Shown: in pieces, positions 1-41,435 of the stretch
Position numbering within the stretch: position 1 is the stretch's first letter
Layout of the letters: the number at the start of each line of letters is the position of its first letter
From: Pseudogymnoascus verrucosus
Taxonomy: Eukaryota
DNA: 64,000 nt
NCBI GenBank assembly: GCA_001662655.1
Contig: KV460221.1
Reading direction: 5' to 3' (one strand)
Notes under the pieces: generated by a model
What the model was told of the DNA's origin: nothing
Database searches by the model: none
The model's input: the letters and a program-made list of their open reading frames with translations, nothing else
Translations under genes and position numbers: made by a program

Positions 1-3000
1 GCCAGCTAAGTACGCATCGCTAGGAAGAACTGTCTCGCCACCTAAAATAAGTGTATTGAGCTTTGAGAGTGCTGCCCGGCTAACAATTCGTGCTACGGAG
101 GGGGTCATGTCTGCGTATGTAATGTTATATTTCTCTAGACAACGAGGTAAATTATTTCCGAGTTCACTTTGCATTGGGATGCAAAGTGTTCCGCCAGCGG
201 TGAGAGTGTGCAATATATTAGACCAGGCTACGTCGAAAGCATACGACGCAAGATCAAGCACGCGGGAAGTATTAGAGCACCCTAAGATCTTTTGTTGATA
301 GGTGATAGCGCTGCAGAAGTTTCTGTGGGTGATAAGAACACCCTTCGGCGTTCCAGTCGTGCCCGAGGTGAGAACGACGTAAAGAATACCCGACGGACTG
401 ACGGGCGGCAAACTAAAGGGCGCTGGGTGTGACTGATTGGCCCCGACGACTACCACCTCTTTAATACCAGCACTGATCTGGATAGCTAGAGATTCATTCA
501 TCCGCGATGATAGAATGACCGCCGAATTTACCTGCGCAGCTATGGCAGACAGTCTTTCCAGTGGCTGTTTAATGTCCATTGCCATACATGCGCCGCCGGC
601 TTTCATAACAGCGAGCGCCGCAACGGGCATGAACATCGATTTCTCGAAGAGAAGCGGGACTATGGTCCCCGATACCCCTTCTTCTGATAGGTGATAGGCT
701 AGGTTCGTCGATAGATCTTCTAGCTCCCTGTAAGTCAGGTTGCCGTCCCACGCGTTAACTGCTAGAGCAGACGGGTTCTCGCGAACTTTTTCCGAGACCA
801 AGTCGTGTATGCACGCCTCTATCGGTTTTGGTACCACCGCATTCCACGTCCATATACGGTTAAGGCTCCACTGATCATCATGAAGCCCCCTGAGCGTCTG
901 GTTGCCTTGGCTACCATCAGATAGCTGAATGATCGTATATTTGAAGCTTTGGGCAATATTCTCTATCTGCTGCTGTCCTATCACGCTCGAATCAAAGTCA
1001 ATACATAAATTGACCCCATCTAACTCCAACTGGAATTCGATAATGATAGAGTAAGTGCTAAAATCTCGACCCTGTGTTTTATTATAGTCACCAACAGGCT
1101 CGTCCAGGAATGGCCTGCCAGGATCACCTTCGCCTTCGCCTTGGTCGGCTGGCTGAATTACAAGGAGAGTCTGAAAGTTAGAACCCAAAGCAGTTTCATC
1201 GTTGAATTGTGCGATATTCTGTAAGCCGGTTTGCTCAAACGCAATCATATCCACTGCCTGACACTGCACCGAGCCAAGTAGTTGGTTTATGGTTGCGTCT
1301 CGGTCCAGTACGACTCTTATTGGGACAGTGGCAATCGTTGGCCCTGCCATAAGCTCGATGCCAGGTACAGGTGCCTGGCGGCCTGTAACAGTCGCACCAA
1401 AAAGTGCCTCATCTCCGCCAGCGCCATTTGCAGCAATCACAGACCATGCGGCTCGGATTAGCGTCGCAGGTGTGAAGTCACTGTGTCCCCAGTCAAGACC
1501 AGGGATTCTCAAACTAATCTGGCGCTCCAATCGCGGATGATGGACTGCTTTTGGAGGAGGAAAGTGCGAGCCTTGTGTACCTGCAAACATTTTTTGCCAG
1601 AAAATCTTCGCAACTGCTTTGTCCTGTTCTAAGATATATTTTATAAACGCCGTCATTGGCTGCAGACCTTGACTGGGTTTATTGAAGTAGGCAAGTTCAG
1701 CCTCTCTCATCAGAAGTGGCATGGAGAATCCATCATACAAGGAGTGATGAATCTCCCATATGAATTGGCTCGGCCTGCCTGCAGCTTTTTCTATTATAGC
1801 GAATTTCGTCAGGGGAGTACCTAGACCTATAGTGGGTCCATTGCTTGTCTGATCCCCCTGAATACTATCGAGCTCAGTGCTAATTGTCCACGATACTCCC
1901 TCGTCTATGACAACCTGGACGACGCCGGTGCCTGGAAGGCTGACAATTCGCGTTCGTAGGATTGCGTTTGCAGCTACAACCCGATCCCAGGCCCCGCAAA
2001 GAGTCTTGGTGTCTATGTCTTGCCCGACTTCAAATACATAATTCGCCACATATGTCCCAGGCTGCTGAGCTGTAAGAGCCAGAAGTCCTTGTTGCAATGG
2101 CGTACAGGGCATGATATCAAGCACCTGAGACGCCTGGATATGGCAAAGCCAGGCAGCATGAGAGCATACTTGTTCTCGATCATCGGATGAACGCAAACCC
2201 AGCAATGAAAAAGGGGTGATCGCAGGTTTGTAAGAGTCAGCATGGCTGAGCTCGGTCCTGTCTTGGGTTGTGCGGACGGATCCGATCGGATCTTGGTGAA
2301 TCTCGACATGGTTTCCATAAATCTCGACCTGCTCCTTGGCATGGACAAAGGTTGGTGGCTCATCTTGTTTGTGCGGCAGACAGCCTCCGTTGTTGTCACG
2401 TTCTAACCCCTGATTTAGTTGTGGTTTCACGGTCAACACCGCATCAGGTCCCTCTTCGATGTAAGTTTCGCCTTTCTTTTTCTCGTGATCATTTGTTGAA
2501 TACCCATTTCTCGTGCTTTCATATGGTGTATACCCGTCTTCTGTGTGGACAAATTCCGTGTGACCATTTTCTGTGTATCCGTTTTCCGTGTGACCGTTTT
2601 GTGTGTATCCGTTTTCCGTGTGACCGTTTTCCGTGTTACCATTTTCTGTGTATTGATTTTCCGTGTAACTTTTTGAGGTGTGTACATTTACCGTGTGTAC
2701 ATTTACTGTGTCTCCATCATCCGTTCCTAAAAAAGAGCCAGAACCGTCAGTAATGAAGATGACATCAGATTAGGTGATGAAGGTTGTGAAAGAAACTGCC
2801 CTTACCAAACTGATGCTTCAGGGTTGCGTCTGACGGTGGAACCACATCGGCAACATGTCTCGGCCGGACCAAATGCGAAATCTTCGCATATTCCGGCGTT
2901 GTCCGCCCAACGTCCGGGGAAAGGAGTACAGAGTCTGCTTGCAATGCGATGATGGAACTTTCTATGTTGTCTCTAAGTCCGCTCAGAGAAGGAATGCAGA

Positions 3001-3757
3001 GACATCCACCGCACGTCAGTACGAGCAAACTATACCACCCTACCCGGCTGGCGTGCGACTCCAAGTCAACGACTCGGGAATTGTGGTTGAGTCCAAGGGT
3101 TTCTTGCTGGTAAGTGATTGTGCTGCTGAACTCTCGGTGGGTGACAACCACTCCAGCACTTCCGTCGGGGCTTAAGAACACGCAGAGGTCGTCCGAGGGA
3201 CTCACTGTCGGTAGTGAGCGAGCTATTATCGTCTCTTCGGAGAGCATCTTCCTATCCACCACCACCACCTCAGCCATTCCGAGCTCCCTTGCCAGCTCCT
3301 CGTTTGCTGATGATGAGAGTATGAAGGAAGGGGAAATCTGGGCTGTGATGGCTCGAAGCCGCTCCCGTGGTTGGCTTATATCCAAGGCGATTGAGGCAGC
3401 CCCGGCCTTCATTAAGGCCACAATGACCACTGGCGTCAGCCATGTTTTCTCAAAACATAAAGCAATATTTGTCCGTGGCTTCACGCCCACGCCGATCAGT
3501 TGGTGAGCCAACTTTGTGGATACCTGGTCGAGTTGTTGGTATGTCAAGTCGCCATCCCATGAGCGGATGGCTGGAGAGGAGGAGAATTCCCAAACAACCC
3601 GCTTGATCAGGCTGTGTACGCATGCTTCAATGGGCTCTGGTACAGCTAAATTTGCAGCCCAGATGTCATCAAAGGCAAGCTTTTTGTGTATCTCCGCCCT
3701 CTTTGGTTTTTGGTCGACTTCCTGCACGCCATTACCATAGAGGGGTTGATATCTCAT
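1..3757 (-). CDS. Non-ribosomal peptide synthetase, 5' part (degenerate A fragment - pentapeptide repeat linker - C domain - A domain; continues beyond window edge)
   Basis: Probable ATG at 3757 (MRYQPLY) and intron 2805-2727 (GTAAGG...CTGAC...TTAG). Exon 2 reads open to base 1. C-domain motifs: PCTPLQQGLL, WDRVVAANAILRTRIV, IHHSLYDG (~1730-1750). A-domain motifs: WDGNLTYRELE, YVVLTSGTTGTPKGV, SYAFDV, LILGGE. Confidence 0.93.
2530..2709 (-). repeat. 15-bp tandem coding repeat (about 12 units), peptide consensus T-E-N-G-[H/Y]
   Basis: Plus-strand units like ccgtgtgaccgtttt. In the NRPS frame it reads TVNVH TVNVH TSKSY TENQY TENGN TENGH TENGY TQNGH TENGY TENGH TEFVH TEDGY. Confidence 0.9.
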
Positions 3758-4397
3758 ACTGCCTACTTCTTTCACAGCAGTTTCTTGTTTCTTGTAAATA
3801 GTTTTATAATGAATAACCAGGAGACATTCGTATAGGGAACACACGGAGAGCCCGGCACCAGCAATGGAAGATTTACCACGATATATCACTTGTTTGGGGT
3901 CTCATGCTTCATGCTATAACTTATGACAAATATAACCTAATAAACGCTCTCAATGACTGCATAGTCCATTTTCATCTGTACAACAGCTCTCTTTACACTG
4001 CTTTATGCGCTCTTGACGTGATCTCTTTACGTGATTGAAGAAACGGGATGCAGCTGGTTGTGGAAATATTGGCGGATCACACGCTTCATACTCACACAGA
4101 TCGAGGCCCTGTTGTACAATATGAACGGACCTCATCTCTCTCGGGAGAAATATTAACATTGTAAAGTAATTGTCCCACATCAAAACATGCCGTGGCTGTC
4201 GAAAAATATGATCTATTGCACATTTAACTACACATCGCCTGAGGCTCGTCTAACGATCCCCTCGGTATATTTTAGTTCGCGTATCATTTGGTTTTTGCAC
4301 GCATTTGATCTAGTTACGATCACCTTCGTTCTACCTGCCGTTGTAGGTTTAACTTGGAAGAGTGGCATGCTTCCCATTCACCATCATGATCTCCATT

Positions 4398-7300
4398 ATG
4401 CCGGCTTCTAGAACGCCTTGTTCAATCGCCGTCGAGGACACTTTCGGCCCAATAGTGGCTGGCCCCTGCCTTGGGGGCTTTGACTTCACGCTCCTCTTCG
4501 AGGAGGCTATCTTGACCATCCTCCCGCTGGGGATTGCTAGTTAGTTGTCGCTGCCAAAAGCAGCTATGACCGTTGTTTGCTGACTTGTCTGTTAGGTATA
4601 TGGGCTCTGCTTCGAATTCGGGTTCTACGCCACCAGACATCAAAGGTTCGGTCATTATGGCTTCTCCCACTAAAAATGGTACGATTCTCTATATTACTTT
4701 GGTTTTCACAATATTGAAGCATGCTTTGCAATGTCTTTGGCTGACAACAAAGAATAGATTTTATTTGCTACATACGTCTTTATCCAAGCTGTGGTATTGG
4801 CAGTGACGACTATAGATGGGATTCCAACGACTCGCCTCACCCTTTGGTGCCATGCGTCAACAATAGTCGTCTATGGAATTTTGTTGTCCGTATCATATCT
4901 AGAGCATACGCGCTCAGTGCGTCCATCGACACTGCTGTCTGTTTATCTCGGAACATCAATCCTACTTGACGCTGCGCGTGTCCGCACACTGTTCTTTATC
5001 TCAGGAAATGAAGTCGTTGCACGCCTCTTCCTCGCCGGGTTTTCTGTCAAGATTCTGATCTTTGTTCTGGAAGTCTCTGAGAAACGTCGCTTTCTCAGGT
5101 CTAAGTGGCAGGATGCATCCCCGGAAGAAACAAGTGGAGCCATCAACAGGGCTCTCTTTATTTGGTTGAATCATTTATTTCTCCAGGGCTTCCGAACACT
5201 ACTGACAGTGGATGTGCTTACCCCACTTGATAGTGACCTACTTGAAGCATCTAAGCCATCGGCACTTGTCAAACGCTGGGAAGAAGGTAAGCCGTCTTCC
5301 ACGTCTTTCAGTTACCTCACCACTTACCTATTTCGACAGTCGACAAATCAAGCGACAACGCTCTTCTGTGGACATTTTTGGCCCATTACAAATGGAGCCT
5401 TGGGGCTGGTATTATTCCACGACTTGCTTACAGTGGCTTTAGCTTCTCACAGCCGTTTCTTGTTCAGCGAGTTCTCGACTTTACTGCAGAAACTAGAGGT
5501 CCTAATTCGCAGAATATCGCCTATGCCCTCGTTGCGGCCTATGCAATCGTATATATTGGGATCTCTGTCAGTCACTACTCTGTGTACCATACATACTAAG
5601 CTAACTCTGGTATTTCTAGTTGTCGTTTTCAGTCTACCAGCACAAGACATACCGACTTCTCACTCTGTTCCGTGGGAGTATTATTGCTCTCGTATTTGAC
5701 AAGACTCTTCGCGTCAACTCGTCAGCCGCCGAAAATGCAGAGGCGATCACATTAATGAGTGCAGACATTGATCGCATTGGATCCAGCATGACTCTGGTCC
5801 ATGAAGTTTATGCATCCTTTATTGACGGCGCCCTTGCAATCTTCCTATTATACAAGCTTCTTGGGGTGGCTGTAGTCCCCCCACTCGTGTGGATAATTGG
5901 TATAACAATGCTTTCTTTTATTATTATCTATTATGTTCTCTATAGCATCTCAATTCACTAATCGGCCCTCAGTTTGTTTATTGATAGGACTTCCCCTTGC
6001 AAAGGCAGCTGGCAATGCTCAAATCCCATGGCTAGAAGCGATAGAAGATCGCCTGGCAGCGACTGCGAAAGTGCTTGGCGCGATGAAGGCTATAAAATTG
6101 ACGGGATTGACGGACATCGTATCATCTCGAGTCGGAAACCTTAGATTGGCTGAGATTCACGCATCTCTCCGGCATCGTGTCTTGGTCATTTTTTCAGCAG
6201 TCGTATGTAAGTATTTCTGAGTATCCAGCAAGAAAATGAACATAATAATCTAGCCATAGGATATTACTAATACCTGGACACTAGCTTTTGCATCTACCGC
6301 TTTGGCTCCAGTGTTGGGTTTTGCCACATACATCCTCCTTGACAAAACGAATGACTCATTGGGATTGACAGAAGGAATCGCGTTTGCCGCACTGAGCGCC
6401 TTCGAATTGCTGGATGGGCCAATGGTAGTCGTTATTGATGGCTTTGAGCACATCCAAACTGTTATCAACTCATTCCGTCGTGTTCAAGAATACCTACTAA
6501 CAGAAGAACGAGCTGATTACAGGACTTCCCTGGAAGACGTACGGCCATCTTCGAGATCAAGGATTTCACGCTATCAAAGATATGATGAGAATATAACCGC
6601 TGAGGGTTCCCCAAGATCTAATTTGGTAGGCCTAGAATTGGAGGTCATTGTTGAAGATGCATCGGCTAGCTACATTGCAGAAGATGACCCTGTTTTGCAG
6701 AACTTGTCATTTGAAATCCCCCGAGGCCAGATCACCATGATATTTGGTCCCGTCGGTTCTGGAAAGTCGACATTGCTCAAGCTGCTGCTTGGAGAAATGC
6801 CATATGCCACGGGCTCAGTTGCAACCGGGTTTACCAGAGCAGCGTACTGCCCTCAATCGCCATGGTCTACCTGGGGCACCGTCCGAAGCAATATAGTGGG
6901 CATGTCGGTGTGGGATGAAAAGTGGTATAACACTGTTGTGTCTGCCTGCGCACTCTTGGAAGATTTTTCGGAGCTGGCAAATGGAGACCAAACTGCAACC
7001 GGTGCACAAGGGTCCGGGCTTAGTGGTGGACAGAAAATGCGATTGGTGAGTATTCATAACTTGTGCAGCAAGCTTCTCAACTAAGAGTGCATAGTCTTTT
7101 GCTCGTGCGCTTTATTCAAAAAATCCTGTTATGATACTGGACGATGTGCTTACAGGACTGGATCGCGCCACTGAGAGGCATATTACAGACGCCGTGTTTG
7201 GACCAAATGGCCTTCTGGAGAAATTAAACTCGACAGTTATTCTAGCCACAAATTCAGGTATCCCTTCCACTTTAACACTAATGTACAACATATTGACTTA

Positions 7301-9511
7301 TGAAAGCACACCATTTGAGCTTTGCCAACCACTTCATATTCCTCGATGACGGCGAAATTGTTCGAAAGGGCCCTGTTGATACCTTGTCAGTGGATGGTGG
7401 AGTTGTCCTCGAAAAAGTTATGAGCCAACCTGCTGCAACAACGCCTCGTCCAGAGCCAGAAATTCCAGATGAGGCTCAAGATGCCCTGAAGGAACTCGAG
7501 CTTCTCAGAGCAGGTCATGACACCGGAGATATTCAGATTTATACGTATTACGCAGACATCGCAGGATGGTGGACTATTGCAGCCTATCTCTTGGGCTGTG
7601 TCACGTTCGTATTCGGCATGACCTTCCCTTGTATGTTGCGAAAGGATTCAGAACAAAGAAGCCAATTTGCTAATACGCCTTAGCTGTCTGGTTGCAATGG
7701 TGGGTTAACGCCAACGCGGACCACCCGAACGAACGTGTTGGGTATTGGCTTGGTGTGTTTGGCGCCCTCGCGGTTGTTACAATTCTTGGTTGCGCTCTAG
7801 CGGATACGTCAGTAATCCATATCTCTCATATTCACATCACTGTGATGCTGACATTATCGGAGGATGTTTAACATGGTAGTACTGCCAAAGACGGGAATAA
7901 GGTTCCATGAGCTCTTGTTGAGTACAACTATGCAGTGCGCGCAGCCCATTTGATTTGTGGGGTTTCTTGAATTGACAATTCATAGGGCCCGAACATCTTT
8001 TCTCACATCAACCGATGCCGGAACCACGCTAAATAGGTTTGTGTGTTGAGTTCTGTTTTTGACATTGGGCTAATATTGAAACGAAAAAGGTTTAGTCAAG
8101 ACCTAGAATTGATCGATAGCGATCTTCCCCAATCCATTGATGAAACCGTTTCTCAATTTTTATCGGTTATCGTTTCTGCAGTCTTCGTATTTATTGGTTC
8201 AGGTTACGTTATAGCAGTTCTCCCGCTCTGCATCGTAGCGCTCGGTTTGATACAGGTTTATTATCTACGAACTTCGAGGCAACTACGGCTGCTAGATATT
8301 GAGGAAAAAGCACCTCTTTTCTCCCAGTTCTTAGAAACCGTGAACGGCGTGGCTTGCATTCGGGCGTACGGGTGGTCTGAGGAATATACGGAGCAGAACT
8401 ACAAAAATCTAAACAGATCGCAGAAGCCATACTATCTGTTGTGGTGCATCCAAAGATGGCTGACTCTGGTTTTGGACCTTTTAAATGCGGGCGTTGCCAC
8501 CCTAGTTGTTGCACTGGCCACCAATCTTGAGGGTGGGTCGACTGGATTCCTGGGGGTTGCGCTCTTCAATATCGTGATCTTCAGCTCGACACTTCAGGGT
8601 CTGGTAACCGCGTGGACTCAGGTTGAGACAGCGCTTGGGGCAATAAACAGAATCCGGTCGTTTATTTTGAATGTCGAGAATGAGAACCAAGAAGACGAGG
8701 TGGGCACCGTGCCGGAAGACTGGCCAGAACGAGGTGGCATTGTGTTCAAGGATATTTCGGCCTCGTACGAGGTCTCGCTTGGACCAGTTTTGAAAGAAAT
8801 CAGCTTCTCAATTCAACCTGGTGAGAAGATAGCTATATGTGGGCGAACAGGAAGGTGAGTGTCTGATATAGTCAACAGTCGAAGAGTTTATACTCAAGAA
8901 GAATTAGCGGCAAGTCGTCTCTCATCTCTACTATACTTCGTATGTTGGAGATTGACTCTGGTTCCATTACCATTGACGATGTCGACATCAGCAAGATTCC
9001 GCGACAAGAAGTGCGAAGCCGGTTGAATACAATATCGCAGGAAACTTTCTTCCTACACGCTAGCGTGCGCGAAAATATCGACCCCCTTGAAACTGCTAGC
9101 GATGAACGTATTATTGAGGTGCTTCGCGCCGTAAGTATGTGGGACTACTTTGAGTCACGCGATGGACTTGATGGCGATGTGGAAGAGGAGAAATTGTCCC
9201 ATGGACAACGACAGCTATTTTGTCTCGCTCGTGCTATTATCAAGCCAGGGCAGATCCTTATTATCGACGAGGCAACAAGCAGCATGGATTCCGAAACAGA
9301 CGAACTCATACAACGGGCACTACGTAACGAGTTTGAGGGTCGCACTATAATTGCTATTGCACACAAGTTGCATACCGTGCTTGACTTCGATCGGATCATG
9401 TTGCTTGAGAAAGGTCGGATTGTTGAAACTGGAAACCCACAGGAGCTTCTCGAAACAGCGACATCAGCTTTCCGCGCCCTTTACGAGAGTCTTGGTGAAG
9501 ATGTGCAATAG
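4398..9511 (+). CDS. ABC transporter, ABCC/MRP type (multi-exon)
   Basis: N-terminal EDTFGP...[12 protein letters not shown] motif typical of fungal ABCC. NBD1 has GPVGSGKS and LSGGQ. TMD2 has [10 protein letters not shown] and [16 protein letters not shown]2 has GRTG/GKSS split by an intron, LSHGQRQL and IIDEATSS. Confidence 0.95.
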
Positions 9512-16534: not shown

Positions 16535-16771
16535 GTGGTGTTTGCCGTAAAGTCTCCATATGAGGAGGTCATTATGGGACAGGTATCGTTAAAAACAACT
16601 GCTAGATAGTAAATTTTCACCACTCAATTATTTTCATGAGATTCTGCAAGATATGTGACCAACATATGCCATTAATATGCCTAAATCCGACATAAATCTC
16701 ACCCAAAGGAATTCGTCAAAGGAGTACGTCGGACTATATGCGATCATTCACAAGCCATCCTCTCTGTAAGC

Positions 16772-19700
16772 TCATATATTCGCGCGAACCACCGAGCTAC
16801 TCACCAGTGACCTGTCTGCCATTCGTTTCCAGACCGATCTATCACTTCTCGTCGGCCAAACGCCGTTTCTGCCCGGTTCCATAATACCCGCAGGATCTAC
16901 AGCGTCCTTGATCGCCGTATTAATCTTCGCCAGAGCATCGTCCTGGACATCCCGTATCGCAGCAATCTGATCCATAAGGGCCCCATACGTCCAGTATTCC
17001 GTCCACCCATTTTTCTCACAATCATCCACCAGCGTAAGGATAAGCTTATGAAGTCTCCGACAGGAGTCAGAATCGTGGCGCTCATATGCGATGTAGACTG
17101 TATAGTGCATGTGGCGCTCATCGATCGTGATTGCGCCTAGGAAATCTAACTCGGCATCCTGTATACGCTTCTTCGTAATTGACAACTGTGCATACGCGAT
17201 CTCTCCGGAAATTTTCGAAGTCAGGCGAAAAAATACTTGAGATCCTTTGGGTACCCATGTCGTCCATTTTTGCTCGGCTATGGGAATCTCTTCGTGTTGG
17301 TTCCAGCGGACACAACACGAAGACTGGTCATGGTGAACCGACTCTGGAAAGTAGAATTTTGCCCCTTCAACTTGACCAAATGCCTCCTTGATTACCTGGC
17401 ACAAAGCATCGCGGACGCCCTTCTCTCCATATATCATGCCGTGCAATATCCAACGATTGGTATTAATGCCGTCTGGTTCTATGCTATTGAGAGGAGCATC
17501 GGATGAGGCATTTGGGGACATTGTATCTAAAGGTATATAGTAAAGGCTAGGGCGTGTCTGTAGGGACATTGTTTGGCGAAGCTTCTGAGTGATATAGACG
17601 ATTTTAGGGAGGTCTCCCTCCTTTGGAAACCCAATCTGGTAAGGCTGGCAATCGGCAGGGTTTGAGGTGAGCTATTACATTTCAGCGTGTGATCTTTACT
17701 ATTATGTTCACAATTACTGAAGAGTTACTTACACAAATAGACTAGGCACGTTAGCAAACTTCATCCATCGTTTGAACATCAGTCATCTAGCTTACCAATT
17801 TCACAGCTATCCCCAAGCCTTTTTCCGAGAGTAGTTTTCCATTAAATACACCGAAACTGGAATCGAGGGGCTTATGCTTGTTAGCGGTTGCTAGAATATA
17901 AAACCATGGAGTTACAAACCTGCGTTTCTTCAAATTCTAGCTGTTCGACTTCAGGCCGCGTGCCAGGATATTGTATTAATCCCGTTTTGAGGAGGTCTCC
18001 ATTGGGAAGTATTATTTCCTTGCCACAATAAAGTGTAGATATGTTACCTTCCACAGCATTTCCCAAGGCCAGTCTTTCCGTATACTTGGGCCAGTCGATC
18101 GTGAATTTCTCGTTAAGCTTATTGTCAACAAGGTATTTGTCAATATCTGCATGTGTGGCTCCAGGCTCCACGACAACATATGCACCAGATTCATTTACCC
18201 CAAGCACCTTGTTCATGTAGCTACCAAAGTCCAGGCCAATGCTACCAGGAACTCGTGGTATAGCGGCTCTATAGTCATCGTCACTCCCGCCGCTAAAAGA
18301 CCAAACTGGGGTTTCAAAGGTGTTGCACAAACGAACAATTTCTTGTGCCTCCGACACCTTCCGGGGCCTAACGATGGCGGAGAGAAGAAGATTATCCCTG
18401 TCAGAAACATTCAGATTAAGAATATCAAGTGCGCCCAGCAGCTTCTTGTGAGTCTCTTCCGCCTCCGTAATTATTTTCACGTTATCAGCACCACATATAT
18501 TTTCTGCTTGAACGATATAATCTTCAAACCTCCTGATACTCGTGCTTGGTGGAAGGACAAGTGGGATTCCTGGATTCGCTGGGCTGGCACTGGCTACCGG
18601 AACCTCCTTTCTTATGGGAATTCCAGTAGCCTGAGTGTGAAGATAAGCCTTTAGCTTTTCGGCGCGGTCCATGTATTCAGCAGCCTTGTTCTGCATTATC
18701 CTCTTGCTCTCAGAGTTCTTCTCAAATCTGATGGCAAGCATGAATAATTCGAGACAGATGTAGTACTGTTTATATGCGTTTTCATAATCCTTTGCATTGT
18801 CAAGGGCAATGGCTTGTTTGACAGCGTCGATAGCTCTCCCGAGGAAGTCCGTGTTGCTTTTAGTTGGATTACCTGTCGTTGGCAGATTACCTCTCGATGG
18901 TTGACTCGTCGAGCCATCCTCCTTGTCCTTGGCCGGCGGGGGGATCCAATTCTCAATGCCACTGTACTGCTCCTCTGTCAAAGGACTCCCCAAAACACTG
19001 CCTCCCCACATTATTCCGCCATCATTCTGGAACGCATTTTCTCCAATGACACTTCCCCCGTAAATAGTTGACCTGCGACCGTCGATTACCGTGCTGGCAC
19101 TGGTAAACACTGCCTCTGCAGCACGGGCCATACTCTGTAGCCCCGAGGCTATATTACTGTTTCCGTTCTCTTCTTGAGAAGGATCAGAGCTCGAAATATT
19201 GTTTCCTTGTAGTGCCGCCTCGGCTCGTTGGCTAATGAGTTTAATCATATCTCCAAGGTTAGCAAGAGACGTATCAAGGCTTTGCAGTGAGGCGTTCCCC
19301 TTGATGTGTAAACATCTAGTTACAGTTAGACTTGGTCGCATATTTAAAGAAGAGCAATAATGAATTAAACTCGTACTTACAAGCTGATCATCTGTAGTCC
19401 ACCTTGCATTGCAATATGATGAGAATTGATGCGATGCTGATATGCGGTGATATCAGACATAGACAATGATAGTTTGACTGCCTTCGTCGGCTTGCTCAAA
19501 ATGCCATGCCCAAAGAAGCCGCCCTTTTTAACATTCGTCAGAGCCTTTTCGAGCATCTCGATCGTTAGTTTACTATTATCCAGGTTCTCTGTGACACTAG
19601 TCCAAAGCGTGGCATCAGGACCAGAATAAGCCATGAGAACCGCGGTATTCTGTTTCCATGTCTTCTCAATTGCACTCAACGTGCCCGAAAACCCCATGAG

Positions 19701-19887
19701 CTCCTGGTGGAGTCCAGAAAAGTTGGTGTCAACATTTCGAACGCTGTCTGTGGTCGTGTATACAGCAGCGGCTACCTAGATGCCAGTGAGCTAATCTGCA
19801 TCGGCGAAATGCGGCAAGAGCCATAGGTACCTTGAGACAAAAGACTGCAAGACTTGCAGAGCTAGCTGCTATTGATACTGGATCCAT
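16772..19887 (-). CDS. Chimeric protein: HeLo-like (fungal STAND N-terminal) domain + MIT domain + degenerate vanillyl-alcohol oxidase (VAO/PCMH) fold
   Basis: Spliced in frame across five GT-AG introns, including a 9-nt microexon (17733-17741). N-terminus MDPVSIAASSASLAVFCLK/VAAAVYTTTDSVRNVD. MIT at ~18640-18858 (SNTDFLGRAIDAVKQAI...EYMDRAEKLKAYL). VAO-like region from PLVLPP to KDAVDPAGIMEPGRNGVWP. Confidence 0.85.
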
Positions 19888-20323
19888 ATTGTTTTATTCC
19901 AAACGCACATATTTCAAAGTGTAACTCTAACAAAATGAAGTGCCGTATACAAATAAATATGAGATAGGAGAGCGACAATAAAGTAGAAGATCGGGGAATG
20001 CCAAGAAAGCTTGTGTGGCTGTGGAAGGATTGGAGCGGGGCTGAGTAAGAGCGAACAGCCTCACTGGAAACCCCACACAGACCCCCACGATTATACCAAA
20101 GTTAATATGTAGATATTCAGCCTCGAGGTTGGTTTAATTTAACACCTAGCTAGTACACCACCTATGGTTGACTTCGATCGAACTGTCCACTGCGACGAGC
20201 CTGCAGAGGATGGCGTACAGTTAAGCCTATGAAGTAGTTTGTATACCTCGGAATAATACGTTAGAACGGGCTCGTAGATGCCATCATTCTTATTATAATG
20301 CTACATTTTGGCCATCCTCACAT

Positions 20324-21489
20324 TCACGTAGCCTTCTCCTCCACCTCCTTCTCTCCCGCGCTTTCCGCCGGCAAATCCCCAAACCTAAACATCCCCCAAC
20401 TAACACTCCCCTCACACAGCGTCCACAACCTAACCCCTCTATCCTCCTTTGCCGCCCCCGCCCCCACAAACACCGGCAACAAATGCTCAAAAGTCGGATG
20501 CGCCTTCCTCGCATCTGGCCTCTTCAGCAACTCCCCCATCTTTGCCTTCCTCTCCGCAGGTTCCGACTCCACGGCTTGCTTTAGCGCCTCATCGAACGTC
20601 AGCGCGTAGTCGCGCGGCTTCAGGGAGCCACGGCTCGCGAAGAAGTCGGGGAGGTTGTGGACGGCTTGGCCGGAGACGATGATCAGCACACCCTCGTCGC
20701 GGAGGGGCGCTAGGGCTTCGCCAAGCGCGTAGTGTGCGTCTCCAGAGTCGGAGTCGAAGAGGGAGAGTTGGACGATGGGGACGGAGACGGGGTTGGTTTC
20801 TGGGTGGAAGAGGATGGAGAATGGGACCCAGACGCCGTGGTCGAGGCCTCTTGTGGCGGGCTTGGCGGAGATGCCTGCGTCGGCGAGGAGACGGAGGGCG
20901 GATTGGGCGAGCTGGGGGGAGCCGGTGTGGGGGTATTTGGCGCGGTAGTAGTGGGAGGGGAAACCGCCGAAGTCGTAGATTAGGGGGGTCGATGGGGCGG
21001 AGTTGATGGAGAGGGTGGTGGCGGTGCCTTCCCAGTGGGCGGAGAGGACTAGGATGGCTTTGAATTTTATGGTGGTAGTTATTTCGCGGCCGAGGGTGGT
21101 GAGCCGGGCGTAAGCCGGGTGAGTGGTGTCGTACTTGATGTTTGGCTGGGTGGCTGTTAGTTGGTGTGAGTGCAGTGGAGGTCTCGGAGTAGGGGGATAT
21201 TAGTTGGTGTTAGATAGTGCGGAGACCGCGCTGGGAACACATCGTGCGGAGACCGCGGCTAAGAACAGATAGTTGGAAATATACTTACGCCCCCATGGCT
21301 CACAAAATATACTGGAGTCCTTGTAGTGGTAGACATATTGCGAGTCTTCAATGCTGATCCAAACTGTTTCACGGATGCGCGGCCTCCAACGGCAGGAGCA
21401 ACAGCCCAAAAGCTTCTAAATAATATGGCAAGCGCCACGGCTGTGACTGCGAAGAAAGCCGATAGAAAATAAGTGCGGCCTAGAAACAT
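20324..21489 (-). CDS. LigB-family extradiol ring-cleavage dioxygenase (DODA-like)
   Basis: PVYFVSHGG/PN, LSAHWE, YDFGGFP..YY, RGLDHGVW, SGQAVHNL and AHPTFEHLLP motifs. Start is 21489 (with a hydrophobic leader) or 21336. Confidence 0.9.
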
Positions 21490-27206: not shown

Positions 27207-29287
27207 TTAATGGATAACCACAGCCACATGGTCATCCATATACTTGTTAATATCTCCCAACATACAGCTCGCAATGATCGCGACACACCCAAACGCAATA
27301 CTCGCGTAATAAACATACGGATAAGCCTCTGAGTATGCCAACTCGCCCGCGCTGATAATCAACTGCCACTTCGTGACATTGCCGTCAACACCAGGGACAT
27401 GCAGAATATGTTCCGTGAGACTGGCGCCGATGAGCTCGGCGATGGTGGTGATGGACTCCTTGTCGTAGATGCCATTTAGTAAGCAGACTTGAAGGACGTA
27501 GGCCGTGAGCTTGGGGACGAGCTTGGCGTAGAAGACGTTGTAGTAGACGGTGAATCCGATAGCACCGCCGATGACACGGATGGATAGTGTGAGCGCGGCG
27601 ACGGTGGCGATTAGGTCGTCGGGGCAGATAATGGTTGTCATAATCGATGCTGGGACGACGATGCCGCCGATACCGAGACCAGCAACCACAAGAATGCCGT
27701 AGACAGCGGGGAGGTTGTCGCGGGTGGCAGCAGCCATGGCGCCAGTGCCAGCAGTCATCATGATGGATGCACCGATCAAGAGGGCGCGGTTATTGCCACG
27801 GAAGACGGAAAGTAGCCAGAGGACGACGCAGGCGCCGATAAGGATGGAGAAACCGATGGGCAGACCACGGAGTCCGACGCCAACGGGGTCATGGCCGTAG
27901 ACGTTGAAGGCTTGGGTAGGCCAGAAGAGGATGACCGCAAAGAAGTTGGCCCCGGAGATGAAGGTAATGACTAGCGTCATGGCGAGGATTCGCGGGTCCT
28001 TGCCAATGCGGCGAGGGAACATGGGGTAAGGTGCGAATTTGATCTCCCAGATGGCAAAGAGGACGAGCAGGAGAGCGCCGATGAAGAGTGGGACGAGGGT
28101 GTGGACGGACGTCCAGGTGTAGCCGTAACCACCCCAAAGCAGGCCGGCAATAAAGATGATAACGCCGGAGATGGATAGCAAGCCGCCGACATAATCAACC
28201 CGAGCAAGGACTTGGCGGCGAGTGAGGCCGTTGCTATTGACGCGGGGCGGGGGGTGGTAGAAGATTACGACCATGACAAGACCGATAAAAGACCAGAGTC
28301 CGCATAGGAGACCAACCCAGCGCCAGCTGGTGTGTTGGGCGATCAACTGCGACCAAAGAACGGAGGGCGCAAATGGCAGAATGGTGAGAACGAGGATGGC
28401 AACGTATTTTCCACGCTTGGCCGTGGGTGCGAGCTCCGACGTCGCGGCGAGGGCGGTAAGTTCGTTGACGCCTGCGCCGGCACCTGCAATGGCCATGCCG
28501 CCTGTAGTTTGTTAGTTCTAGAGGCTCCGGCCAAAACGTGGCGGTTCAGGGGAACGGGGAATATACCAATGAATGGGTTCATCGTCTTTGCTGTAGAGCA
28601 TACAATCATGCCAATGATAATGAGTACCGACCCGCCGATGGAAACCCAGCGTCTACCGAAGAGATCGGATAGCGCGCCAACGAAGGGGCAGACGGCAGCG
28701 AGAGCGAGCAGATTCGCAAGGACGAACCAGATCCAGCGGTCTGGGCCGCCAATGTCGCCGTAGATGACTGGAGGGATTCCGCCTGTCGAGATAGTTAGTT
28801 ATCGAGGACATATAGCACCAAAGCTGTTAGAGGGGTCTCATATATGGGCTCACCGAAGAGGTAGACTGGGATCTGGGAGCTGGTCCACAAGAACGCCATG
28901 GCAACCAGGGACATGGCCCTATTGAGGGTCATCTAGCACTTGTTAGCTATATATTCTCACTCTTGTTCTCGCGCAACCACCACAATGCAACTGTCTCTGT
29001 CTCTCCCATACAATCGCTCTTCTCACTTTCTCCCGAACAACCCTCTAAGCGCAAAACCCCACGCGCGGACAAGAAGCGGAAAATAAACCTACCGGTGGCT
29101 CATGCTCATGATCCTCATCATCCCCATCCGTCCTAAACCCATTATCCCCAGACTTCCTTCCGTCCTCGAGCTTCCCGTCCTCGAGTTTCCTATTCGGACC
29201 ATCCGACACAACCTCGACATGATGTTCCGCGCTCGCCTTCTCATTCGGCGGCGTCGACGACGCGTGTGAAGCCGCTGTATCGGCCAT
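27207..29287 (-). CDS. MFS efflux transporter, TRI12 (trichothecene efflux pump)-like family
   Basis: Many TM helices; AMAFLWTSSQIPVYLFG, SDLFGRRW, ELTALAATSELAP, FHPPPRVNSNGL-like and C-terminal KYMDDHVAV motifs; multi-exon. Confidence 0.9.
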
Positions 29288-33747: not shown

Positions 33748-36700
33748 ATGGAGAAAATTCGCGAAGAGAAGGGCATTAAGTCGGCGTTCGATAGCAGTAC
33801 GTTCGATGCCAATGTCTCTATCCACGTCCAAAAGGCCGCCACGGACATTGGGTCCGCGACCATCTCGCCTTCCGGACGGGATGTAGCTATTGCTTCGTGA
33901 GTGTCCTCCGCCCAGGTATACGGGCCATATTCTGACTTGCATTACAGTAAAACCGGCCTTGACATAATCGACCTCGACTCACCGCTGAATCCCCCCCGAC
34001 ACCTCCGACATGGCACATCATGGAACATCGCCGACGTACAGTGGTCGCCTTTCGCCGCCCGCGACTACTGGGTCGCCTGCACCGCGAACCAGAAGGCACT
34101 GGTATGGAACCTCGCCATGCAAGAAGATACGCGGCAGGGAGCCATCGAACATACACTACACGCGCACACGCGCGCAATCACCGACATCAACTTCTCAGCC
34201 CACCACCCCGATATCCTAGCGACATGCGCGGTGGACGGATACGTCAATGCGTGGGATCTGCGGAGGCCGCGACGGCCAGCGTTGACATTTGTGGATTGGG
34301 ACGCGGGCGCGACGCAGGTGAAGTGGAATCGACAAGAGGGGCATATTCTGGCGTCATCCCATGACCGATGGCTGCGGATTTGGGACGACAGGAAAGGTGC
34401 ATACCCTGTGAAGTCGATTGAGGCGCATAGCTCGAAAATCTACGGTTTGGACTGGAACCGAGTTTCCGCGACGCAGATTGTTACGTGTTCGCTGGACAAG
34501 AGTATTAAGTTCTGGGACACTTCTGCGGAAGAGCCTATCCCGGAGCGAGTCATTCGAACTTCGTTTCCGGTGTGGCGTGCTAGACATACGCCTTTCGGTT
34601 GGGGACTCCTTGCGATGCCACAGAATGCCCCGGGAAACCTGTATTTGTATGACCGACGAAAGGAGGGCGTGGAATCGGATACGATGGCCCCTGCGGCGGC
34701 AGTATTTAATCACGGCGAGCGCCAGGTGAAGGAGTTCCTATGGAGATCACGCGGCAGTATTAACGAGGATGGAATGGACAACCGCGAATTTCAGCTAGTG
34801 TCCTGGGGAGACGATAAGGAGTTGAAACTACAACGTGTGGCTAATTCTCTGCTGGAAAAGGTCGGATATGTCAAGGGGAGCCAGATGACGAAGAAGCTCA
34901 ATGTTACTCGCAAGGGCGCCATTTACAAAACGTTTAGAAACGTGGAGCGAGCGGAGATGGAGAAGAAGTCTGCCACGATCAAGGCGCCTCGCCTGTTAAG
35001 CAGCAGCCACGACAAAGAGAATTCATATAGCGTTCTCAGCGACGAGATTAAGAAGATGTCTCCGACGAAGAGGTTTCGGAGTAGGATGGGCATTAATGGA
35101 TCGACAATGAGAGGAAAGCCCATGAATTCCGAACGGCGGAGCCAGATCAACTGGATGAGCGGTATCAAGTTCACCGCCAATGGCGGTGGCGATGATGAGG
35201 ATGGGCAGGGTAAGATCCCTGCGCGGCGGCTGTCCGTCATCAGCCCCAATTTTGATATGGAAGGTGATTGGGACACGCCGGAATCACTACATGACGAGAT
35301 CATCCGTGTGCACCAGCAGTACAGTAAGGTCACGTTCAACGATGTTAATATGGACACTCGCTCTGTTACGGCGTCGATGAATGGTCCGTGGGGCAAGGAT
35401 GGGGAGTCGGTCTTCATTAAGGCTACAATAAAGTTTCCAGACCAGTATCCCGGGCCTAAAATACCCACGTTCACTATTGGCAAGTCGTCTCTCATATCTG
35501 ATGAGACCAACGAGCGAATCTCGCAAGAGGTACAGCAGATTGCTACCGGATTTGTTGGGCGTCACCGTGGTTGTTTAGAGGCCGCTCTCTGCTACTTGCT
35601 TGGGGAAGTCAATCTCGAAGAGAGCACACAATGGCTCAAGGGAGCTGACGATGTTGATAATCTTGACGACGGCATCGCAGACGTGAGCTCTAGCGACGAA
35701 GATGATGATGACATACCGGCAACCAATTCAGCGATGATGTCTCAAGAATTGGATCCAACCTCAACAGAGGGGATTCTTGTTGCAAGTAGGCGTCATGCTA
35801 ATGTACCGCTCCCGAGACTTTCAGGCGCTCGGTTCTCCAATAATGGCAGGCTCATATGCTTCTTCCCACCGAAGGAAGAGAGGTTCAAGTCGCTTCTTGG
35901 CTCGGTTGCCTTAGACAAATCGAGAGTCAAGGACGGACCTTCCTTCAATACATTTTCGCGCCTTGCTACAGAGTCGCTTCCACCGAGAAGCAAGTTCGCA
36001 TCGCTCAATGAGGAGGAAGATTTCGAGTCCGATTCGTCGCAAGGCTCTGGAAGCGAATCCTCGAGCGATTCCGACTCTTCACAGTTCCAAGTCAGTGTCG
36101 CATTCGATTTCTGGCGAAAGATCCATGGCACGAGTTATCGGAAGGGGCTGTCTACAAATCGATCCAATAAGTCGAGTGGGGCTGGGACTGGAACTGGTAC
36201 TGGTACCGGAACCCTGAGTAAAGGGCGGCTTTCTAAGCCTAAAAATACGATTGCGATGTACGATGTATCCGATTATTTACCGGGGAAGCTTGAGCTGGCT
36301 CAGGAATACGCCGTATTTGGCGAAGGGACGGATGTTTGCAACCACAACGCGATGATTGCGATGAAGTATGGGCACCAGGAGCGTGCAGATCTATGGACAT
36401 ATGCCGGGATGTTGCTACAGCACGAGGTCCCTCTCGAGATTCTTGATCAGTCGCATCGGAAGGAGCCAATCCTTGTTATTGCACGAGATATGATCAGGCA
36501 CTGTAGGCGTGACAGCCAATACGACAGCGGCATCGATATGCCCTTCGACTCGAAGAACCTTGCCATATCAGGGAGAGTCAAGTGGGGATACAGCCCTCTC
36601 GCCAAAAACCTGATTGATGACCTCTTTGACCATTTCGAGAAACTGGTTGACATACAGATGCTAGCGATGCTATCTTGCGTCTTCAGCGAACCATCTGCTG

Positions 36701-41090: not shown

Positions 41091-41435
41091 TATTAGGTTG
41101 GGGATGGTATTGGGGACGGCATTGGGAATGGCAGATTTATGCGTAGTGAAGGCTGAAATATGAAGCTTTGTCGATGAAGTTTTTTTATGTTGTTTGATCT
41201 GTATGCTGTTTGATCAAAAGAGTTCCCCACCTTTGGCTCCTTATCGTCGATCTCCAGCCGAGCGCATTGTGGGGGTTTGTTTCAGGGACACGGGCCTAAT
41301 CAACCCCGCGGTCAGCCTTGTCTTGTCGTTCAAAAATCGCCGACCCAGCCTGATGATATATTTCCAAATTTTGTCCAGCGGATAGCATCTAGAGATTGAA
41401 TGCATAATTTGGAGTCTCCCTGTGTTTTCTAAGCA

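Follow-up and report, generated by a model that had tools for sequence, protein, structure and literature searches.

MIT domains bring kinases, proteases and, in MITD1, a PLD-like pseudoenzyme to ESCRT-III (excerpts of PMC9477494). In the MIT domain of yeast Vps4, the substitutions I18D and L64D abolish binding of MIM2 and MIM1, respectively (excerpts of PMC3987140). The flavoenzyme vanillyl-alcohol oxidase (VAO) assembles as a homo-octamer of dimers with active-site residues Tyr108, Asp170, His422, Tyr503 and Arg504, of which His422 provides the covalent link to FAD, and with a 'cap path' at residues 390-401 (PMC5646868). PF17111 (PigL_N) is a HeLo-like family related to the executioner domain of MLKL (excerpts of PMC9815663 and PMC7705454), and integrated decoys, such as copies of the CHK-2 kinase, have been proposed for fungal NLRs (excerpts of PMC12258605).

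The window analyzed here, a stretch of 64,000 nucleotides from contig KV460221.1 of the cold-soil fungus Pseudogymnoascus verrucosus, carries a gene that joins a helical N-terminal region, an MIT domain and a VAO-type oxidase part. The gene is a real, single and intact three-part fusion (Table 1). As rebuilt from the window, it runs on the minus strand from 19887 to 16772 as one 943-aa frame of six exons (CDS of 2832 nt) whose lone stop is the terminal one, and its five introns (55, 65, 49, 54 and 61 nt) all have GT..AG ends. This model bears out the initial annotation, which had read one frame over five canonical introns including a 9-nt microexon; counterparts of the microexon are present in two of the six NCBI ortholog models, as CIC in P0003 and AIC in P0004. 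Exon 3 is an uninterrupted open frame of 1396 nt that runs from the end of the N-region through the entire MIT into the oxidase, of which it encodes the first half, and because both the MIT and FAD_binding_4 lie within it, the MIT-oxidase junction requires no splicing. Moreover, an 11,493-nt contig from another organism and another study spans positions 16732-19939 colinearly, and the gene recurs in six independent assemblies of Pseudogymnoascus. Thus, the junctions are no assembly chimera, a concern that had been raised at the outset. The four runs aligned to the gene consist of contigs and display no splice joints.

Table 1. Features of the three-part fusion gene, in positions of the whole window
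Feature	Position	Strand	Remarks
Whole gene	16772..19887	-	943 codons + stop; model, ortholog tblastn, sequence
Exon 1, 19 aa	19831..19887	-	hydrophobic first helix MDPVSIAASSASLAVFCLK; identical in P0001-P0003
Exon 2, core of N-terminal helical region	19381..19775	-	100% identity with P0002
N-terminal region, aa 1-290	18898..19887 (introns included)	-	distant PigL_N/HeLo-like candidate; ends with conserved SASTVIDGRRSTIYGGSVIG...WIPPP
Exon 3, N-region tail + MIT + linker + VAO FAD-binding domain	17920..19315	-	single open frame
MIT domain, aa 304-380	18628..18858	-	Pfam match 18649-18843; duplicate of Vps4 from residue 2 to about 76
15-aa linker unit HTQATGIPIRKEVPV	18595..18639	-	single in window; tandem double in relatives (P0002, P0003, P0005)
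VAO-homologous part	16826..18564	-	span takes in introns and exons 4-5; matches VAO residues 9-559
Degenerate FAD-binding loop WSFSGGSDDDYRAAIP	18256..18303	-	VAO 98-113 is WPISIGRNSGYGGAAP
Codon at VAO Asp170 position, Lys	18085..18087	-	followed by YTERL in place of LGGGS
Exon 4, 25 aa	17796..17870	-	tblastn of orthologs, rebuilt model
Microexon, 9 nt (SIC)	17733..17741	-	aligned with VAO GIW; in P0003 and P0004 models
Exon 6, VAO cap domain + C-terminal part	16772..17671	-	Pfam, VAO alignment, model
Patch of greatest variability, aa 741-780 (~VAO 374-412)	17264..17383	-	48-58% to P0002, head 100%
Codon at VAO His422 position, Gln	17237..17239	-	VAO alignment
Codon at VAO Arg504 position, Trp	16991..16993	-	Tyr503 retained

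Our preferred reading, to which we assign a probability of about 0.4 as a whole, is that of a lineage-restricted accessory gene made of three borrowed modules, in which the MIT would dock the fusion protein to ESCRT-III, the head would act at the membrane and the dead oxidase would serve as a scaffold, in a setting of defence or cell death. The modules would be a head of ~290 aa, all-helical in its model, with a hydrophobic first helix and distant kin among the PigL_N/HeLo-like domains, which in other proteins work at membranes; a duplicated Vps4 MIT from which the ATPase is absent; and a complete fungal VAO fold that has lost its cofactor site. Like other MIT cofactors, the MIT is predicted to bind the C-terminal tails of ESCRT-III polymers at endosomal or wounded membranes. 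The dead oxidase may form a dimeric or oligomeric scaffold, given that VAO itself oligomerizes, the fast-changing surface of its cap may recognize something, and membrane action by the head would follow at the docking site, as part of a non-self response or of regulated cell death and not of metabolism. We infer ESCRT-III binding, oligomerization, membrane action and biological role.

The Vps4-type MIT that the initial annotation placed at 18640-18858 is clearly recognizable. Window exons match PF04212 with E 1.2e-18 and 67.4 bits (cut-off 30) over profile positions 1-65/66, and the domain is 54-70% identical to Pezizomycotina Vps4 MITs, begins at Vps4 residue 2 and scores 65 bits against yeast Vps4 MIT structures. 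Of the Vps4-invariant columns, 38/44 are retained. The equivalent of I18 is also retained, and that of L64 is M, as in 21/21 Pezizomycotina Vps4 rows. At the position of yeast Vps4 R57, where Pezizomycotina invariably have R, the Pseudogymnoascus-type MITs have Q, a change that could alter binding. The fusion protein further differs from fungal Vps4 in that the MIT is internal and not N-terminal, and in that no Pfam match to an AAA ATPase or Vps4_C follows it in the window exons or in the six orthologs, in line with the earlier remark that the AAA domain is absent. A W>F replacement at one invariant column is common to all eight family MITs examined, which fits a single origin. A tree with Pezizomycotina Vps4 MITs of other species (83 columns) places the window MIT on a long branch (0.52) and does not join the two family groups, but it is poorly resolved (no resolution at 22 of its 37 inner branches) and still compatible with a single origin. 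The protein contained no internal MIM1- or MIM2-like motif, neither a MIM-like motif nor an ESCRT gene was present nearby, and none of the three parts occurs a second time in the window.

Over its last 550 aa the protein is colinear with residues 9-559/560 of Penicillium simplicissimum VAO (PDB 1VAO and mutants), with E 1.3e-38 and 2.6e-61 for window exons and 1e-139 for ortholog P0004. Window exons also match FAD_binding_4 (E 9.6e-13, 48.5 bits versus a cut-off of 26.4) and FAD-oxidase_C (E 1.1e-4, 22.4 bits versus 21.2). The colinearity with VAO proposed earlier therefore extends over a full-length homologue, preceded by ~395 extra N-terminal residues. Two of the five active-site residues, Tyr108 and Tyr503, are retained in the window, whereas D170 is replaced by K, H422 by Q and R504 by W; His422 is retained in orthologs P0004 and P0006, and Arg504 in P0006. 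The FAD loop SIGRNSGYGG of VAO reads SGGSDDDYRA in the window, with three acidic residues, and loop changes are common to 12/12 family members. Residues that are nearly constant among 28 VAO-like representatives are lost from the 12 family rows: K/R104 (26/28 versus 0/12), N105 (27/28 versus 1/12), G109 (27/28 versus 0/12) and, in the replaced GGGS motif, GS174-175 (23/28 versus 0/12). A deletion of 8 aa (VAO 187-194) lies about 11 aligned residues beyond the motif at the Asp170 position, with a gap there in 11/12 family rows. The distant relative P0010 has the same loop losses, indicating that the loss is old and that the fold has nonetheless been retained. Collectively, these changes predict a homologue of VAO that is not an active member: a non-oxidase, unable to bind FAD covalently and most likely flavin-free, consistent with the dead flavoenzyme of the initial annotation.

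The closest ESM Atlas matches of the head score 0.94 and 0.91 (191 and 171 shared features), and all belong to PigL_N clusters. PF17111 itself is matched at 20.1-21.5 bits in orthologs P0001-P0004 (profile positions 1-67) and at 21.2 bits in P0012 (positions 35-205), below the cut-off of 27.2, and P0005, P0006 and window exon 2 by itself gave no match. An AlphaFold2 model of the head from a 5-row alignment is all-helical with a mean pLDDT of 47.6, too low to judge the fold, and a word-index search with the head returned only the six orthologs among 7944 candidates (proteins of 523-1666 aa). The region resembles HELLP/HELLF-type executioners and the HeLo-like heads of fungal NLRs in lying at the N-terminus, in a hydrophobic first helix and in ~200-290 aa of putative helices, in addition to the weak PF17111 matches and PigL_N look-alikes; it differs in its sub-threshold score and in showing no amyloid motif, NOD domain or NLR partner beside it. 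The HeLo-like N-terminus proposed at first thus agrees with the language-model look-alikes and falls short by the profile scores in four of six orthologs and P0012, and distant kinship with PigL_N/HeLo-like domains is only a lead. No NACHT or NB-ARC domain was matched in Pfam (E up to 0.1) in the window exons or the six orthologs. Without this nucleotide-binding (NOD) domain the fusion protein is no NLR, and the NLR-like membership suggested by the initial annotation reduces to analogy.

A non-lethal cofactor of ESCRT-III, with the head as plain helical scaffold or membrane binder in a protein that structures or regulates endosomal sorting, is an unlikely alternative, for which MITD1 provides the precedent of an MIT with a pseudoenzyme (excerpts of PMC9477494). 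In our PDB comparison MITD1 (4a5x, 2ymb) appeared as a weak MIT match. By analogy, a protein with an MIT joined to a dead enzyme fold may dimerize and may sit at membranes, but the likeness is one of layout only, since the PLD-like MIT_C is absent after the MIT and the domain there is VAO-type. The dead fold of MITD1 is PLD-type, whereas that of the fusion protein is VAO/PCMH-type, and the fusion family is fungal, of narrow range and has an extra HeLo-like candidate head. A cofactor role is also consistent with the sub-threshold PF17111 membership and with the fact that most PigL_N proteins are without tested function. However, a trafficking factor would not usually show so restricted and patchy a distribution, with apparent decay in some species. 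Moreover, HeLo-like heads typically begin with a hydrophobic helix such as the one here, and non-self genes abound in the neighbourhood.

We consider it improbable that the protein is a bait-and-kill guard, in which the MIT would be an integrated Vps4 decoy for ESCRT-III-tail mimics of a virus or other antagonist, and the oligomeric dead oxidase would gather heads and trigger death. The closeness of the MIT to Vps4, including its start at residue 2, suits a decoy, and a viral protein that recruits VPS4A by mimicking a MIM has been described (PMC11218997). With integrated-decoy NLRs, namely plant NLR-IDs and the CHK-2-derived kinase NLRs of Sordariales, the protein shares a duplicated housekeeping piece fused to a presumed death-signalling protein (excerpts of PMC12258605 and PMC4246468), although their nucleotide-binding switch is absent and the decoy role is putative. 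One metagenome scan yielded no orthologous DNA, only a paralogous family (L001, L002). At locus L001, a head 42% identical to that of the window is followed by other non-catalytic housekeeping pieces, a TPR, a Bud6 N-domain and a formin GBD+FH3 without FH2. The locus may comprise more than one gene, however, a decoy has no known activator here, and a plain targeting domain predicts the same conservation.

The three-part architecture, which the initial annotation had suggested seeking in other genomes, occurs in six or more Pseudogymnoascus assemblies and in one further relative, 37% identical. Pfam was scanned in 34 of the 150 listed representatives, namely those with at least two matched stretches or odd offsets; the other 116 have one matched stretch each, mainly inside the MIT or oxidase part of the query. 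Conservation is uneven along the protein, with the head 99-100% conserved at a cap identity as low as 78%. Against P0002, identity is 100% in the head, 97% in the MIT, 87% in the FAD domain and 78% in the cap, and across orthologs the head is 83-100% identical where the oxidase cap is 53-78%. The stretch that holds the most variable patch is also indel-rich in active VAO relatives, so the patch may simply be weakly constrained. Several gene models are altered: ortholog P0006 lacks most of the MIT, P0005 lacks 16 aa of the MIT and some oxidase, and P0009 and P0157 lack the head. Judged by these models, in which annotation errors are possible, the gene looks dispensable.

These data bear on whether the fusion is an evolutionary accident, a chimeric gene without function of its own that is drifting to a pseudogene, which likewise has little probability in our view. 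It would account for the fast change of the oxidase (247/1908 nt differ between window and the relative's contig in this part, against 39/1345 nt upstream), for the truncated or altered models in several species and for a 1-nt indel at the 3' end, where a one-base difference at 16801 gives the window the ending ...SLVSSSVVRANI before its stop and relatives ...SLVE. Yet 943 codons and five introns are intact, and P0010, at 37-47% identity, retains the order of N-region, MIT and VAO in open frames. In the oxidase part of the relative, most of the listed indels cancel or come in threes and one pair does not, with five more beyond those listed. Head and MIT, by their identities, are under evident constraint.

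Still less probable is a fungal sense-and-kill device without a NOD. In such a device the hypervariable, cofactor-free flavoenzyme shell would replace the NLR switch as the module for recognition and oligomerization, and the Vps4-derived MIT would either bait pathogen proteins that hijack ESCRT or park a HeLo-like pore former on ESCRT-III and so block membrane repair at the site of damage. If this holds, the head and Bud6/formin fragments of L001 would point to a wider class of HeLo-like heads plus borrowed housekeeping bait. Finally, an active, endosome-tethered flavin oxidase with non-covalent FAD that works with the neighbouring LigB dioxygenase in aromatic or secondary metabolism is very hard to sustain, for although a gene for a LigB-type ring-cleavage dioxygenase is the immediate upstream neighbour on the same strand (20324-21199), the pairing recurs in other species as fused gene models (P0006, P0009, P0157), both active-site tyrosines persist and some active VAO relatives are without Asp170 (excerpts of PMC9293466), the FAD-binding loops are replaced throughout the family, with acidic residues in that of the window, R504 and H422 are gone, and the 8-aa deletion lies beside the flavin site.

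In the literature searched, neither MIT nor a dead VAO was found as a partner of HeLo-like heads: PMC9815663 contains no PF04212, Vps4 or FAD, and among the domain names that came up in PMC12258605 there was no MIT and no FAD. The combination of HeLo-like-candidate head, MIT and dead VAO is undescribed in that literature, as the initial annotation had it, although NCBI lists the orthologs as hypothetical proteins for which MIT and FAD_binding_4 are precomputed. Their range is narrow and fungal.

Under our preferred reading of an ESCRT-III-docked fusion, a HeLo-like head tied to an ESCRT-III docking domain would offer a direct handle on whether attack and repair are linked in fungi. In animals, ESCRT-III reportedly repairs membranes punctured by MLKL (Gong et al. 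2017). The protein would also exemplify a whole flavoenzyme fold retained over tens of percent divergence after loss of the cofactor site, a pseudoenzyme reused as scaffold or sensor. A drifting chimera, by comparison, would be a small curiosity of Pseudogymnoascus accessory genomes.

The window also contains a HET-domain gene and a NACHT-like/ankyrin NLR, a setting in keeping with the preferred reading. Within the fusion gene, the doubling of the linker unit in relatives is visible as an alignment joint that goes back 45 in three runs of their contigs.

The minus-strand gene opens with an ATG at 19887, and its six exons join into a 2832-nt frame with one terminal stop, encoding 943 amino acids. 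All five introns (55, 65, 49, 54 and 61 nt) are GT..AG. The 9-nt exon preserves the reading frame, encodes SIC opposite VAO residues GIW in the alignment, and also appears in two orthologs' NCBI models (CIC in P0003, AIC in P0004). The single frame across five canonical introns described in the initial annotation, microexon included, was thus confirmed in every detail. Exon 3 is one open frame of 1396 nt that holds the end of the N-region, the entire MIT domain, the linker as well as the first half of the oxidase part; the MIT-oxidase junction, the most surprising one, is therefore independent of splicing. At the C-terminus, orthologs end in ...SLVE whereas the window protein runs nine residues further, to ...SLVSSSVVRANI, because of a one-base difference: three related assemblies have an extra base after 16801. 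Either the indel is real or the window's assembly has a sequencing error here.

Positions of the gene's exons, of two segments within it and of neighboring features in the window
Feature	Position	Strand	Remark
Exon 1	19887-19831	-	rebuilt gene model
Exon 2	19775-19381	-	rebuilt gene model
Exon 3	19315-17920	-	rebuilt gene model
Exon 4	17870-17796	-	rebuilt gene model
Exon 5	17741-17733	-	rebuilt gene model; 9-nt microexon (SIC)
Exon 6	17671-16772	-	rebuilt gene model
Conserved N-region block	~18937-19101		aa 223-277
45-nt linker unit coding HTQATGIPIRKEVPV	18595-18639	-	just past MIT; contig comparison, ortholog proteins
LigB-type extradiol dioxygenase	20324-21199	-	436 nt upstream, same strand
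Short-chain dehydrogenase			downstream of gene
NRPS condensation and adenylation pieces	1-3901	-	
ABC transporter	6260-9511	+	
TRI12-type efflux pump	27207-28511	-	
1461-aa ORF	33901-38286	+	WD40 repeats near start
HET-domain ORF	41433-43025	+	
NACHT-like (NPHP3_N)/WHD/ankyrin NLR	49384-51421	-	

At the protein level, the gene best matches hypothetical proteins of 846-1185 aa from six Pseudogymnoascus isolates, 73-94% identical over exon 3. Precomputed MIT and FAD_binding_4 domains are present on five of the six; in the remaining one, P0006, the domains are LigB, FAD_binding_4 and FAD-oxidase_C. An 11,493-nt contig from another organism and another study is colinear over window positions 16732-19939, its sole rearrangement being a tandem duplication of the 45-nt linker unit. 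Together with the six isolates' proteins, this contig shows that the junctions are not the assembly artifact against which the initial annotation had cautioned. These sequences mark the source organism as a Pseudogymnoascus-type fungus (Leotiomycetes, Thelebolales). The linker unit is single in the window and a tandem double in three related sequence sets and in P0002, P0003 and P0005; its copy number is a linker length polymorphism. Exon 3 was also scored against 1.84 billion representatives, yielding 1192 matches (E ≤ 1e-3); of the top 150, P0001, P0008, P0009 and P0010 alone matched both MIT and oxidase. Within the 34 exon-3 relatives chosen for a Pfam scan, P0010 (37% identical, ends cut by contig ends) shows the same succession of head, MIT and degenerate oxidase, and the metagenome protein P0012 has head and MIT and then ends, possibly at an intron. 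The P0009 cluster, whose members include Pseudogymnoascus sp. VKM F-4517, F-4515, 23342-1-I1 and P. australis, is missing the head and MIT helix 1; in both models scanned (P0009 and P0157), the upstream LigB gene leads into a truncated MIT plus oxidase, and there is no head. P0006 lacks most of MIT, and P0005 parts of MIT and of the oxidase. Missing pieces in these four models are either deletions or annotation errors.

The window MIT matches Pfam at 1.2e-18 over profile positions 1-65 of 66, and among solved structures it is closest to yeast Vps4 MIT domains (65 bits). Of 120 proteins listed for a 106-aa query, the first 10 are family members with MIT and FAD_binding_4; apart from a handful of MIT-only fragments, the other 110 combine MIT with AAA, the Vps4 type, and are 54-70% identical. 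Pfam detected neither AAA nor Vps4_C after MIT in the window exons and six orthologs, bearing out the original description of a Vps4-type MIT that no AAA domain follows. In the alignment the window MIT opens ..KSNTDFLGRAID and Pezizomycotina Vps4 opens MSNTDFLGRAID; the copy therefore begins at Vps4 residue 2, and it extends to the end of helix 3. It retains 38 of 44 columns invariant in 21 Pezizomycotina Vps4 rows, with six changes (L>I, K>R, W>F, I>M, R>Q, H>Y). W>F is common to all eight family MITs examined, as would fit a single capture event. In yeast Vps4, I18D and L64D disturb binding of the ESCRT-III motifs MIM2 and MIM1 (PMC3987140). I18 is retained in the window, and the L64 position is M both there and in 21/21 aligned Pezizomycotina Vps4 rows. 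The MIT tree unites ten Pseudogymnoascus-type MITs in one clade within Vps4 MITs (SH-aLRT 100, long stem of 0.52) and places P0010 and P0012 apart from it, at a resolution limited by 83 columns.

The C-terminal part proved colinear with Penicillium simplicissimum VAO, as initially proposed: window exons align with residues 9-231 (1.3e-38) and 270-559 (2.6e-61), and ortholog P0004 with residues 8-559 (1e-139). Because fungal VAO matches much better than bacterial eugenol oxidases, this part probably derives from a fungal VAO gene. Residues that matter in VAO's active site are Tyr108, Asp170, His422, Tyr503 and Arg504; His422 forms the covalent flavin link, and Asp170 is required for flavin incorporation and acts as a base (PMC5646868). 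In the window these five read Y, K, Q, Y and W. VAO loop 101-110, which we take to contact the FAD phosphates, changes from SIGRNSGYGG to SGGSDDDYRA, LGGGS at 171-175 to YTERL, and eight residues (187-194) are deleted. In a comparison of 28 VAO-like representatives, each at least 480 aa, with 12 family rows, K/R104 occurred in 26/28 versus 0/12, N105 in 27/28 versus 1/12, G109 in 27/28 versus 0/12 and GS174-175 in 23/28 versus 0/12. R504 occurred in at least 26/28 versus one of six family rows reaching the position, and H422 in 19/27 versus 2/6. Loop losses are common to distant P0010, and thus the cofactor site was lost before the family diversified, with the fold kept since. The K, Q and W at three of five active-site positions, along with FAD-loop residues (K/R104, G109, GS174-175) found in no family row, sustain the earlier view of a dead enzyme. 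On residue evidence a pseudo-oxidase is well supported, and it is predicted to carry no flavin.

For the head, the profile in question is PF17111 (PigL_N, formerly Helo_like_N), the HeLo-like family, which aligns with the MLKL executioner domain (PMC9815663). Window exon 2 alone gave no Pfam match; four of six full-length orthologs score 20.1-21.5 bits against PF17111, and P0012 scores 21.2 bits (profile positions 35-205), with every value under the 27.2 cut-off. ESM Atlas, a source of leads and not tests, scored P0002 residues 1-295 at 0.94 (191 shared features) and P0012 residues 1-255 at 0.91 (171); the neighbor clusters are stand-alone proteins of ~280-290 aa, with PF17111 in 94-100% of members. 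An AlphaFold2 model from five sequences has six long helices, but its mean pLDDT of 47.6 makes it unusable, and a word-index search found no head relatives beyond orthologs. The hydrophobic start MDPVSIAASSASLAVFCLKVAAAVY presumably fits the habit of the HeLo-like family. The HeLo-like head suggested in the initial annotation is therefore probable but unproven, favored by PigL_N neighbors and held back by sub-threshold scores. The block SASTVIDGRRSTIYGGSVIG...PLTEEQYSGIENWIPPP, outside the helical part, is the best conserved N-region stretch in every lineage, including metagenome locus L001.

Parts of the protein differ in divergence. Identity of the window to P0002 is 100% in the head, 97% in MIT, 87% in the FAD domain and 78% in the cap, with just 48-58% at aa 741-780; to P0004 the values are 84, 87, 70 and 54%, and to P0001 99, 90, 95 and 99%, with just 70% in the linker past MIT. 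A related organism's contig differs at 39/1345 nt over head and MIT and at 247/1908 nt, plus 25 gaps, over the oxidase part. The most variable patch, approximately VAO 374-412, contains residues 390-401, which belong to the 'cap path' leading to the active site (PMC5646868); this stretch is indel-rich in active VAO relatives as well. The pattern could reflect recombination among old alleles, a recognition surface under diversifying selection, or weak constraint. In its likeness to relatives the gene is also a mosaic, with a 5' half nearest P0002 and a 3' half nearest P0001 (cap 99% versus 78%), against which P0001's MIT and linker stand out.

What the protein retains is an MIT core of Vps4 grade, a VAO shell that is full but cofactor-less, and a highly conserved helical head. 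MIT domains bring a range of cofactors to ESCRT-III tails, the pseudoenzyme MITD1 among them (PMC9477494), VAO forms an octamer built of dimers (PMC5646868), and HeLo-like domains, which are related to MLKL, are executioners that act on membranes (PMC9815663, PMC7705454). Our tentative model, with a probability of roughly 0.4, is that MIT would dock the protein onto ESCRT-III-coated membranes, the dead oxidase would oligomerize it and present a variable surface, and the head would act on the membrane. A non-lethal ESCRT cofactor, for which MITD1 would be a precedent, is unlikely. A guard in which MIT serves as a Vps4 decoy is slightly more doubtful, and the same holds for a drifting chimera, with a divergent cap next to a conserved head and MIT. 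An active tethered oxidase, set against the cofactor-site losses, is very improbable. Nor is the protein an NLR, because Pfam detected no nucleotide-binding domain in the window exons and six orthologs; the NLR-like sensor initially envisaged is an analogy. Literature searches joining 'vanillyl' with 'MIT domain', or 'MIT domain' with 'Pseudogymnoascus', returned nothing, and 'MIT domain' was absent from the best-matching literature on HeLo, NLR and fungal. PF04212, Vps4 and FAD are likewise absent from the main text of PMC9815663, which surveys the effector domains of fungal NLRs; supplements to these papers could list the architecture. The claim that no such architecture had been described therefore stands for the main texts searched, but the orthologs are public, nameless, as hypothetical proteins; the nearest known kinds are MIT cofactors of ESCRT-III and HeLo-like-headed fungal proteins.

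One metagenome scan yielded two loci, L001 and L002, with a head 42% identical and an intron at the same position as in this gene. In L001 (10013-13487, plus strand), TPR repeats and an Aip3p/Bud6 N-terminal domain (4.8e-35) come after the head on that strand, succeeded by formin GBD (2.8e-34) and FH3 (9.6e-22), with no FH1 or FH2 within the next 2 kb. Between these two blocks one can place a GT..AG intron that preserves the frame; its donor is weak, and L001 as one gene is therefore only a candidate. L001 may encode a second protein of head plus borrowed housekeeping fragments, and should it prove to be one gene, the same head with non-catalytic pieces of housekeeping machines would be a recurring theme.

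The gene is flanked by LigB and short-chain dehydrogenase genes. LigB is fused to the gene in several NCBI models of other Pseudogymnoascus isolates (P0006, P0009, P0157), and the pairing may mark the old home of the oxidase gene. Further off are the NRPS pieces, ABC transporter, Zn2Cys6 regulators and TRI12-type pump, and the left end of the window may hold a secondary-metabolite cluster. With its HET, NLR and WD40 ORFs, the region is rich in non-self-recognition-type genes.
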